64,000 bases of DNA, taken from assembly GCA_964016885.1 (NCBI GenBank), contig OZ024743.1, forward strand, positions 314,650,001 through 314,714,000. Direction: 5' to 3'. Of this stretch, positions 54,051 through 57,451 are shown piece by piece. Source of the DNA: Eledone cirrhosa. Its lineage: Eukaryota. The notes beneath the pieces were generated by a model. It saw nothing but the letters and a program-made list of their open reading frames with translations, did not search any database and was not told the origin of the DNA. The first letter of the stretch is position 1. Each line of letters starts with the position of its first letter. The position numbers and the translations under genes are program-made.

Positions 54051-54373
54051 TAATATACACAATGACTGCTCGGTCTGATTTGCATATTAGTCACTGTTTA
54101 TTTTTGAAAATAGCATATACTTTCACTAGCTCTGAGAGTTTGGCAAGTGAACATTGAACTGTACTGACGAAGGGTGATACCGAGAAACATTAGTGTCTGC
54201 AGTTCTGTTCGCATGCCAAAACAAGAGCAAGCATGAAATGTTTATTCTACTGGCATGGCTATAAAATTGAGGCTTGTTTGCATAATTACAAACGAATCGA
54301 ATGTTATTACTAATATTCAAAAAATTCACGTTATATTTATTCTATTCAGCCAAGTAGAGCGACATTTTCTTTT
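54051..54373 (+). repeat. About 323-bp direct repeat, copy 1 (HHR-bearing)
   Basis: Aligns by eye with 56186-56509 at roughly 90% identity; offset 2135 bp. Confidence 0.92.
54156..54205 (+). ncRNA. Type I hammerhead in direct repeat copy 1
   Basis: GAACTGTA-CTGACGA-AGGGTGATACCGA-GAAA-CATTAGTG-TC-TGCAGTTC; 8-bp stem I, GUC triplet, weak stem II. Confidence 0.8.
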
Positions 54374-54495
54374 ATATATATATATAGAGAGAGAGAAAAT
54401 TGAGGTTGGTAATGGCACATGGAATATATAAGAGACAGAATATTTTTTGTGAAAAAACATAATTTTATAAGGTAAGGAAATAATAAAGGGTATAA

Positions 54496-54543
54496 AAAAT
54501 GACCGGTTTCGATGGGTCTGCAAAAGCCATCTTTTCAAATGTT
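54496..54543 (-). ncRNA. Antisense copy of the 55946 hammerhead in the left arm of the foldback
   Basis: GACCGGTTTCGATGGGTCTGCAAAAGCCATCTTTTCAA is the exact reverse complement. Confidence 0.65.
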
Positions 54544-54985
54544 GATTAATATTAAGAACAATTAATAATACGAAGAGTTAAAATTTGAGACTTGAAAATT
54601 CAAGTATAAAATTCATTGTGGGATTTCATAGCAGTTTTCATCTAGGTAGCAACAACAGGTTGACAGCTGTGTCCCTTTCTGGTAGTGAATGAGAAGTTAT
54701 TTGGGGTGTGGGTTATTTTATAAAGGTCAGATTTAGCAATCACCAACTGGCCAGCTGCTGATCAGTGAGGGGGTGGAAGCAATATACATACACATATCTT
54801 CCTGTGATGGGTAGGAGAGTGGAGCGTGATAGAAAGGGATTTAGTGCACTTACACCTATATATACACACATACCTTCATCCACACATACATACATATACA
54901 TATATATATATATACATATACACACATACATACACAGACACATACATATACATACACACATACACACACACACACATATACACAT

Positions 54986-55034
<49 letters not shown>

Positions 55035-55073
55035 TATATATACATACACATACATCCAGATACACACATACAT

Positions 55074-55106
<33 letters not shown>

Positions 55107-55242
55107 CAGATATATGTATGTGTATATGTGTGTGTGTGTATGTGTGTGCATGTGGATGTATGTATTGTGTGTGCGTGTGTGTGTGTGTGTATATGTATGT
55201 GGGTATCTGGATGTATGCGTATGTGTATATTTATATATATGC

Positions 55243-55273
<31 letters not shown>

Positions 55274-55442
55274 TGTGTGTATATGTGTATATATATGTGT
55301 GTGTATGTTTGTATGTGTGTATGTATATATATATGTGTGTGTGTGTGTATGTATGTTATGTATGTGTGGGGGCGTGTGTGTGTGTGTGTATGTATGTGTG
55401 TATCTGGATGTATGTGTATGTATATATATGTGTGTGTGTGTT

Positions 55443-55473
<31 letters not shown>

Positions 55474-55945
55474 GTGTGTGTGTATGTGTATATATGTGTG
55501 TGTGTATGTGTGTATGTATATGTATGTGTGTGTGTATGTATGTGTGTATGTATATGTATATACATATACATATATATATATATGTATATGTATATGTATG
55601 TATGTGTGGATGAAGGTATGTGTGTATATATAGGTGTAAGTGCACTAAATCCCTTTCTATCACGCTCCACTCTCCTACCCATCACAGGAAGATATGTGTA
55701 TGTATATTGCTTCCACCCCCTCACTGACCAGCAGCTGGCCAGTTGGTGATTGCTAAATCTGACCTTTATAAAATAACCCACACCCCAAATAACTTCTCAT
55801 TCACTACCAGAAAGGGACACAGCAGTCAACTTGTTGTTGCTACCTAGATGAAAACTGCTATGAAATCCCACAATGAATTTTATACTTGAATTTTCAAGTC
55901 TCAAATTTTAACTCTTCGTATTATTAATTTTTCTTAATATTAATC

Positions 55946-55993
55946 AACATTTGAAAAGATGGCTTTTGCAGACCCATCGAAACCGGTCATTTT
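55946..55993 (+). ncRNA. Hammerhead, U3-A8 variant, in the right arm of the foldback
   Basis: AACAT-TTGAAAA-GATGG(CTTTTGCAGAC)CCATC-GAAA-CCGG-TC-ATTTT; stem I weak. Confidence 0.65.
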
Positions 55994-56129
55994 TTATACC
56001 CTTTATTATTTCCTTACCTTATAAAATTATGTTTTTTCACAAAAAAGTATTCTGTCTCTTATATATTCCATGTGCCATTACCAACCTCAATTTTCTCTAT
56101 AACCTTCGTTTTGTGTAGAAAATTACACT

Positions 56130-56185
<56 letters not shown>

Positions 56186-56188
<3 letters not shown>

Positions 56189-56509
56189 TATACACAGTGA
56201 CTGATCGGCCGGATTTGCATATTAGTCACTGTTTATTTTTGAAAATAGCATATATTTTCACTAGCTCTGAGAGATTGGGAGGTGAACATTGAGCTGTACT
56301 GATGAAGGTTGATACCCAGAAACATTAGTGTCTGCAGTTCTATTTGCATGCCAACACAAAAGCAAGAATGAAATGTTTATCCTACTGACATGGCTATAAA
56401 ATTGAGGCTTGTTTGCATAATCACAAACGCAATCGAATGTTAATACTAATATTTGAAAAATTCACGTTACATTTATTGTATTCAGCCATGTAGAGCGAAA
56501 TTTTCTTTT
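56186..56509 (+). repeat. About 323-bp direct repeat, copy 2 (HHR-bearing)
   Basis: Aligns with 54051-54373. Confidence 0.92.
56291..56340 (+). ncRNA. Type I hammerhead in direct repeat copy 2
   Basis: GAGCTGTA-CTGATGA-AGGTTGATACCCA-GAAA-CATTAGTG-TC-TGCAGTTC. Confidence 0.8.
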
Positions 56510-56648
56510 ATATATATATATATATATATGATATGATTCCAGTTCCTCAGTGAAATAACAACCCAACCAGGAAGTGGGCATATCAGAGTATTGATAATAA
56601 AATACACCTGAACAACATATGTACTTGTCTATACTACACTGATTCGGA

Positions 56649-56697
56649 CTGCTGAAGAGGTCACAGCCAAAGATGGCTGTCACTGAAATATATATAG
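56649..56697 (+). ncRNA. Type I hammerhead motif with weak stem I
   Basis: CTG-CTGAAGA-GGTCACAGCCA(AAGA)TGGCTGTCACT-GAAA-TATA-TA-TAG, then AATAAA; stem II opens like the 40315 copy. Confidence 0.6.
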
Positions 56698-57451
56698 CAA
56701 CAATAAACGAAGCTAAATTTTAAACATTTGACTTTTTATTTAACTTTATTTTAGATTACTCCGGAGTAACCAAACCAACCTGCGCACTTCGTCGAGTGCT
56801 CCAGCCTGCATACTGAGGTGTTGGTATACAACCAACATATACTCAAAATCTATATATATATATTTATATCTATTTAATATTCATCCATATAACTAATAGA
56901 ATAATTTCCGACTAAAATATTTCTTTTCGTTAACCTTTCACGCTTAATCGTAGCTAATAAACAAATGAAGTGAAGCTGTTTATGTCTTTTTGTAAATATT
57001 TGTTTTCGAAAAATCGACTTTCAGAATGTTATCAATTGAAATAGCAAAATAACAGCTTATACAATAAATATTTAAGATATATGTAGAATCGCTTTTTTTA
57101 AATAAATACTTCAGATATATGGATATATGTTTCTTTGTCTGAAGACAGATAACTTACACTGAAGGAAAATAGTGAAATATTGGAAAGAGTAATACTTCTG
57201 GCGTATGTGCGTAATGTGTGTCTTTCTATGATGTATAATTGCGGCTGCATATGTGTATATATATTGTTGCATCCGTCTATTAATTCTGTGTACCCATCTA
57301 TTTATATTGTTTGTTTGTGTATATATGTCCACTTCAGGTCACTTCATATAATAAATACGCGTATCTTCTGAATACTGTTTCAATAAAATAAAATGACTAA
57401 AGCTCTTCTGTTTGAGACACACACACACACACGCGTGCACCCCCCCCCCCC

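Follow-up and report, generated by a model that had tools for sequence, protein, structure and literature searches.

Retrozymes and Penelope-type elements (PLEs) are the described systems that come closest to the locus considered here. In the portions of the sources available, the in vivo role of PLE-type hammerheads is called 'still unclear' (PMC8557442), the mobilisation of retrozymes by PLE machinery is argued for vertebrates (bioRxiv 10.64898/2026.07.22.740005), and most retrozyme families are given 7 units or fewer (Li et al., the same preprint). The same portions describe an inverted copy plus tail and a TA bias for PLEs (PMC8557442), and U3-A8 hammerheads as well as hammerhead pairs on opposite strands in truncated Schistosoma PLEs (PMC4209133). 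The PLE tail was traced to two reverse transcription start sites in vitro (PMC11167929). Plant LTR retrozymes (PMC4918200), as summarised in the animal retrozyme literature, have PBS/PPT, 4-bp TSDs and hammerheads of type III; the whole element transposes together. No papers on cephalopod hammerhead repeats were found in literature outside subscription journals and Repbase.

The window is a stretch of 64,000 nt from Eledone cirrhosa (GCA_964016885.1, contig OZ024743.1, positions 314,650,001 to 314,714,000, forward strand); the assembly is 3.0 Gb in size and (TA)n-rich. An original prediction had joined direct repeats, a foldback and a further hammerhead within this window into one retrozyme-like unit of 2.6 kb. 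The composite is very probably an ordinary nest of three (TA)n-targeting Penelope-type insertion families (A, B and C), and not one RNA system.

Layout of the locus and its PLE ends

The nest begins behind a (TA)n target tract (53959-54050, detected by TRF). Family A copy 1 (A1, plus strand, 54051-54373) is 5'-truncated, with the last ~285 of 439 nt and a ~39-nt inverted 5' piece; its type I hammerhead motif (54156-54205) has its core at 54164 and a predicted cut after 54197. Copy 2 (A2, plus strand, 56186-56508) has the same 5' inversion junction, with the hammerhead core at 56299 and a predicted cut after 56332. The direct repeats (54051-54373 and 56186 to ~56509) were confirmed at 296 of 324 identical aligned columns (91.4%) and an offset of 2135 nt, as were the two type I GUC sites, whose triplets end at 54197 and 56332. 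Between them, a (TA)n/(AG)n spacer (54374-54391) forms the left junction of family B, which continues as an inverted, 5'-truncated copy without its last 37 nt (minus strand, 54392-55112) and a forward copy holding the last ~1020 nt of a Neptune-type PLE 3' UTR/pLTR (plus strand, 55113-56135). The forward copy consists of the UTR microsatellite, a unique part from 55625 and a tail at 56099-56135. The predicted inverted repeat was recovered as 54392-55108 against 55350-56098 (93.5% identity, 752 columns), and its arms are near-perfect, as claimed, in that 464 of 470 columns match outside the microsatellite. An (AT)n tract (56136-56185) lies between the B 3' end and A2, and a (TA)n tract (56509-56530) behind A2 is the insertion site of family C, which comprises the terminal ~320 nt of a Hydra-type PLE and runs into (TA)n (plus strand, 56531-56851).

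The U3-A8 hammerhead was found in both orientations, as a minimal motif at 55949-55992 on the plus strand (core 55951, GUC end 55988, predicted cut after it) and in the inverted B copy on the minus strand (core 54538, GUC end and predicted cut 54501). The third hammerhead type has its core at 56652. The predicted count of four plus-strand hammerheads and one minus-strand hammerhead thus holds as core-motif matches, and all were called in that way, without Rfam support: the Rfam hammerhead check gave 0 matches at gathering score in the window, and 0 among the 68 matches at E <= 10 in 53500-57500. Rfam matches to miRNA and snoRNA models were rejected as microsatellite artefacts below gathering score. 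The locus was correctly described as having no ORF, all seven ATG-started frames of at least 60 aa in 54000-56900 crossing the microsatellite. In kind, such a density of hammerheads is unremarkable: under lax criteria the window contains 15 core-like matches, and of 5 such matches checked outside the composite, 4 match repeats in fetched loci. Contigs from four runs cover A and B parts, the A1-B junction being unbridged among the pieces listed (repeats skipped). A search for RNA runs with 55625-56133 listed none, which weighs neither for nor against expression.

Genome searches gave 2860, 1556 and 1383 first-look candidates for A, B and C, of which 40 were scored per search; among these, top identities to other copies were ~90-92% for A, 99-100% for B and 95-97% for C. 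An alignment test gave no A-B, A-C or B-C similarity above shuffles. Each family ends in (TA)n, and A adjoined B at the 3' end in 0 of 29 other B loci. Fetched loci were top matches or exact-pattern matches and are therefore biased to well-kept copies. Inverted copies lack a fixed tail, of 37 nt in B (10 of 12 inverted copies, among 37 B loci), 95 nt in C (10 of 10) and mostly 25-34 nt in A. The arrangement cannot stand as one unit, since the foldback and the third hammerhead are the ends of two autonomous PLE families (B and C), each with more than 1000 candidate places.

Longer B copies carry an upstream ORF with RT (RVT_1, Pfam E = 5.5e-7) and GIY-YIG (E = 2.7e-6) domains, and the protein has a CX4CxxC linker, GxKF and DKG. 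B, a young family, classifies on its motifs as a Neptune-type PLE, a clade defined in PMC8557442 by a CX2-5CxxC linker, GxKF and DKG, the linker being common to Nematis. None of the 150 scored matches to the B N-terminal part had an internal stop and many lay in 777-aa frames; the many intact B frames in the genome would be a candidate source of active protein. Forty B loci were fetched upstream of N-terminal matches (39 of them chosen for 777-778-aa frames), and an upstream pLTR of the same B 3' end was present in 20. The forward copy in the window starts ~350 nt after the ORF stop of a longer copy and holds 3' UTR only, and the two arms differ from the family at 1 and 3 positions. On sequence comparison, the foldback is a 5'-truncated inverted copy plus the forward 3' end of B.

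For family C, longer copies encode RT and a GIY-YIG domain (E = 0.0044, below the Pfam cut-off), with DKT, RWK, CxCX5C and CxxC/CxH motifs, and the ORF of a C locus matches an 809-aa frame at 89%. An initial Penelope/Poseidon-type assignment was dropped for Hydra after motif comparison; since these motifs are Hydra traits in the available list of PMC8557442, C is, as judged by motif, the 3' end of a Hydra-type PLE. Its hammerhead is minimal with a 5-bp helix I, and the window copy has lost one C and carries G>A at 56700, both in helix I.

The B hammerhead has a 5-bp helix II, a palindromic helix III and a 2-bp helix I. In the predicted fold of 54198-56332, which is 90% paired, the left arm pairs with the whole of the plus-strand B hammerhead; the predicted 345-nt piece (55989-56332) needs that hammerhead and would therefore be an unlikely product of the locus. 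Active-fold costs (constrained minus free MFE) were 4.9 kcal/mol for A1, 7.9 for A2, 14.5 for B and 12.8 for C, the last computed in the shifted register of the window copy. The locus as a whole is not expected to function as one RNA system.

Family A, a retrozyme-like unit

The retrozyme reading survives for the 323-bp repeat, which belongs to a non-coding, hammerhead-bearing family with natural dimers, and fails for the composite as a whole. The natural A unit is 435-439 nt long and non-coding. Among 51 distinct top-match loci, 30 have a head-to-tail partial 3' copy preceding the unit, 37 an inverted A copy, 43 a 3' (TA)n and 2 two same-strand hammerheads; in the same loci the start of the unit is either truncated or joined to nothing but the unit's own 3' end. 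Among 30 junction loci, 9 had two consecutive complete hammerheads, representing 8 distinct places; in a second set it was 5 of 30, representing 4. The expectation that the unit would occur in tandem elsewhere was thus borne out by the genome search: in natural dimers the units join directly, with no TA tract between, and hammerhead spacing is 432-444 nt. The ~430 nt that had been predicted to remain from hammerhead to hammerhead after removal of the foldback is a coincidence. The foldback element ends at 56135, so that taking out B (54392-56135) leaves 391 nt, and this remainder is truncated A plus microsatellite.

The longest A run among the loci mapped is three units, short of a long multimeric array; this is not disqualifying, since most retrozyme families are of the small size given by Li et al. 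Of 87 distinct copies, 81-87 retain the core bases of the hammerhead. Helix I has 8 bp and helix III 3 bp; helix II, of 3-4 bp, sits on an A.A mismatch at 10.1/11.1 that is near-invariant in the same copies, as are the core bases. A PLE body joined to the A unit start was absent from all clusters among 270 flanks, and PLE ORF matches in A flanks were single, unrelated insertions. An autonomous partner PLE was not found via shared flanks or via A/B/C alignment, which gave nothing above shuffles.

These features fit a new, non-autonomous family of non-LTR retrozymes with predicted self-cleavage. Family A is likely copied in trans by a PLE protein from RNA longer than the unit; most templates appear to be copied past the hammerhead, either because it is uncut or after religation, whereas roughly one in five likely ends at its cut site. 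The PLE signature is clear in the insertions of family A, a further retrozyme family, whose insertion structure lends support to the idea that PLE proteins mobilise animal retrozymes.

Insertion ends at the predicted family A cut site

The family A hammerhead is predicted to cut at unit position 266/267. If hammerhead-cut RNA served as template, upstream partial copies would be expected to start there. Exact tandem-junction patterns occur at 156 places with the anchor 56 nt downstream of the cut site, at 93 with it on the site and at 52 with it 26 nt upstream. Set 1 comprised 90 of the 156 junction copies with the pattern 56 nt downstream (chromosomes C1-C3; two rows are the arms of one locus). 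Fourteen of the 90 begin at -1 to +5, against 4.4 expected (scan-corrected P ~0.01), in a window picked after the fact; in the prior window of +-3 there were 9 against 4.1 expected (P = 0.024). A second boundary cluster lies at -102 to -96 (6 against 1.0 expected). Cleavage as an absolute 5' limit of the partial copies was rejected, as 52 exact-pattern copies extend past the site and 44 of the 90 copies in set 1 read through it.

With the pattern anchored at the cut site, 6 of 30 copies end within 2 nt of it, as do 7 of 33 on other chromosomes. Pooling puts the start of 13 of 63 junction copies no more than 2 nt from the cut site; the control, taken at the control pattern's own start in the 90-copy set, gives 2 of 90. 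The two sets cover 63 of the 93 matches; two near-duplicate loci were left out of the 33-copy set, and the 30-copy set holds one triplicated and one doubled locus and overlaps the control set. For B, 0 of 20 upstream pLTRs have a boundary at the hammerhead site; 18 read through and 2 are short.

The A boundary pile-up, a moderate and indirect signal, may be a genomic trace of hammerhead cleavage. Stalling of the reverse transcriptase at the long helix I hairpin, or microhomology at the inversion, could give the same pile-up without cleavage, and we put this at somewhat under an even chance. Reverse-complement partners of the 4-mer that follows the cut site outnumber those at 94% of positions, 3 of the 6 cut-site ends in the 30-copy set sit on this 4-nt microhomology, and 1 of the 7 in the 33-copy set is an internal deletion; yet the excess persists once the microhomology and deletion cases are removed (9 of 63 against 2 of 90, Fisher P = 0.008). 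It is also seen in the independent chromosome set alone (6 of 33 without the deletion, P = 0.005), in which the six inversion partners are all different. The cluster at -102 to -96 shows that sequence hotspots exist, and one locus was mapped at 0 in the 30-copy set and at +24 in the 90-copy set, both of which favour stalling or microhomology, although a stop from stalling would be expected at the helix entry, ~20 nt further 3'. The anole PLE, which in vitro used mostly uncut RNA, did not need cleavage and gave no reads at the cut site (PMC11167929), can be set on the same side; the A result agrees with uncut RNA as the main template, while suggesting a cut minority besides.

We give about an even chance to the cleavage reading, under which family A would record its own ribozyme activity: roughly one fifth of the templates reaching the hammerhead would end at the cut site, and cut RNA would serve as a template for germ-line transposition. 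This reading would hold despite the A.A mismatch in helix II, and the minimal U3-A8 hammerhead of B leaves no such mark. Boundary mapping of this kind was not found in the available portions of the related literature. The pile-up offers a cheap test of what PLE-type hammerheads do in vivo. If the A ends do reflect cleavage, the genome would preserve a rare trace of a ribozyme cutting in the animal, and insertion-end mapping would become a sequence-only assay of which PLE or retrozyme hammerheads cut in vivo.

Origin of the nest and related systems

The three families would have inserted successively into one TA microsatellite by Penelope-type target-primed reverse transcription. A truncated A copy would have inserted first and later been duplicated locally between the flanking TA tracts; the 3' end of the Hydra-type PLE C would then have inserted behind A; and last, the 3' end of the young B would have inserted between the A copies with an inverted second copy, giving the foldback. 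We infer the order of A before C from divergence and nesting; no empty allele was seen. The composite itself is unimportant, and the locus shows how TA-targeting PLEs can pile up to mimic a designed RNA.

The first ~150 nt of the unit are missing from A1 and A2 alike; both carry the same 39-nt 5' inversion, and their 5' junction was spanned by 0 of 304 matches in other loci. Eleven non-majority bases are common to the two copies, and any of 77 other rows has at most 3 of these; 13 further changes are private to A1 and 10 to A2. Since, among the copies compared, the 5' junction and the set of 11 shared variants occur in A1 and A2 only, we infer that an old truncated A insertion was copied locally and that B later separated the two copies. 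An alternative origin, in which A1 and A2 arrived as a dimer or in two independent events from a rare A subfamily, would be compatible with an A1-A2 distance of 8% and with each copy lying 7-8% from the family majority, the more so as 40 of 2860 candidates were scored. This origin is nonetheless unlikely: no further copy among those scored aligns over the full 319 nt or is more than 92% identical, none has more than 3 of the 11 shared variants, and the directly joined units of natural A dimers lack the intervening TA tract.

That the whole 2.1-2.6 kb is a functional mobile retrozyme-like unit, releasing a rod-like RNA and the 345-nt piece, is scarcely credible. All motifs are in place, the 2135-nt stretch is 90% paired when folded, and A1 and A2 both keep the catalytic core; divergence is unequal, however, with A1 and A2 8% apart and B less than 1% from its family, and the A1/A2 5' junction is absent from all other fetched loci. 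In the hammerheads themselves, helix II of A1 has the family A.A base plus a private G.G mismatch and that of A2 a private U.C mismatch, and both fail a helix II descriptor passed by 48 of 60 family A cores; the plus-strand B hammerhead is predicted to be sequestered by the left arm, and B pLTRs read through their own hammerhead in 18 of 20 cases. An accidental nest could, by read-through transcription, still yield a 2135-nt linear or circular hairpin RNA, a chance source of dsRNA cut at the A hammerheads. These lie outside the foldback arms, helices I and III are intact in both A copies (8 and 3 bp in A1), and their active-fold costs are similar to the 6.2 kcal/mol of a family copy. Such an RNA is improbable, given the helix II lesions, a competing pairing between core and loop III in the MFE structure and the lack of an identified promoter or host gene in the window; in the available part of bioRxiv 10.64898/2026.07.22.740005, 1 of 9 Xenopus dimers was cleaved in vitro.

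Superficially, the locus resembles plant LTR retrozymes in its two hammerhead-bearing direct repeats and non-coding middle, but its middle is an unrelated and much younger insertion. Family C is like Hydra-clade EN+ PLEs, as far as PMC8557442 was available, in its DKT, RWK and CxCX5C linker, in CxxC and CxH around conserved E and N, in its (TA)n target and in a hammerhead near the 3' end; unlike them, its inverted copies lack 95 nt, as against 30-40 nt, and it is high-copy and recent here. Family B shares with the Neptune-clade EN+ PLEs of the same source an RT, the CX4CxxC linker, a C-terminal GIY-YIG, GxKF and DKG, as well as the pLTR, the inverted truncated copy, the 37-nt tail and the (TA)n target. 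Its U3-A8 core with a 2-bp helix I is like that of Schistosoma Cercyon in the portion of PMC4209133 available, but it has no extra base between positions 9 and 10.1; the long CA/TA microsatellite in the 3' UTR, the middle of the foldback, also sets it apart.

Family A, compared with animal non-LTR retrozymes as described in the available parts of PMC7229834 and bioRxiv 10.64898/2026.07.22.740005, departs from them in occurring mostly as dispersed monomers accompanied by an inverted copy and by part of a copy upstream, the PLE insertion pattern, in having at most three units seen in tandem, and in that no homologous autonomous pLTR was found. The base of helix II is an invariant A.A in A, where G10.1-C11.1 is usual and the axolotl Amex2 motif has U.U. 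It agrees with animal non-LTR retrozymes in being non-coding, in a unit length at the upper end of the 150-450 bp range, in its type I hammerhead with an 8-bp helix I and a short palindromic helix III, in its head-to-tail dimers and in its co-occurrence with PLEs.

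Surroundings of family A and a SINE-like insertion

Family A, the non-coding retrozyme-like unit of 435-439 nt, carries a type I hammerhead motif (for example at L090:1710-1795, one of the fetched genomic loci). The first window copy, A1, is preceded by a TA tract, at which a second repeat ends (window ~53790-53958); sequence similar to this repeat also flanks family A at L106 and L148. A SINE-like repeat was found within family A, entering at unit position ~375-390, in 8 of the 15 loci examined (L017, L020, L021, L099, L103, L146, L147 and L150). It is ~160-200 nt long, ends in a TTA-type tail, and is also present in the window at ~53500-53610. 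Because its 5' ends and target duplications differ between family A loci, the site was likely targeted repeatedly and independently.

Other hammerhead-core motifs and coding fragments in the window

Additional hammerhead-core motifs were located at window 14874 (+), 37930 (+), 14548 (-), 40320 (+) and 41929 (+). Four of the five matched repeats in the fetched loci, and two were of the U3-A8 type, with the palindromic helix III start of family B, the Neptune-type Penelope-like element (PLE). Fragments of coding sequence were labelled by eye from translations, as PLE-like ORFs (36103-36492, 46827-47174 and 48040-49636) and as LINE-like RT/endonuclease (21094-21546 and 42749-46339, with a 200-N gap near 46000).

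Full-length family B and the ends of family C

In full-length family B (loci L256-L265), ~1.2 kb separates the PLE terminal repeat (pLTR) from the RT frame, whose start contains a C-run of variable length; an upstream ORF or a frameshift is possible. For family C, a Hydra-type PLE, several copies were 5'-truncated at one short palindrome, shared with the window copy (56531..56851, +). Inverted copies lacked exactly 95 nt in 10/10 cases (loci L062-L086), a figure far larger than the 30-40 nt of the PLE tail.
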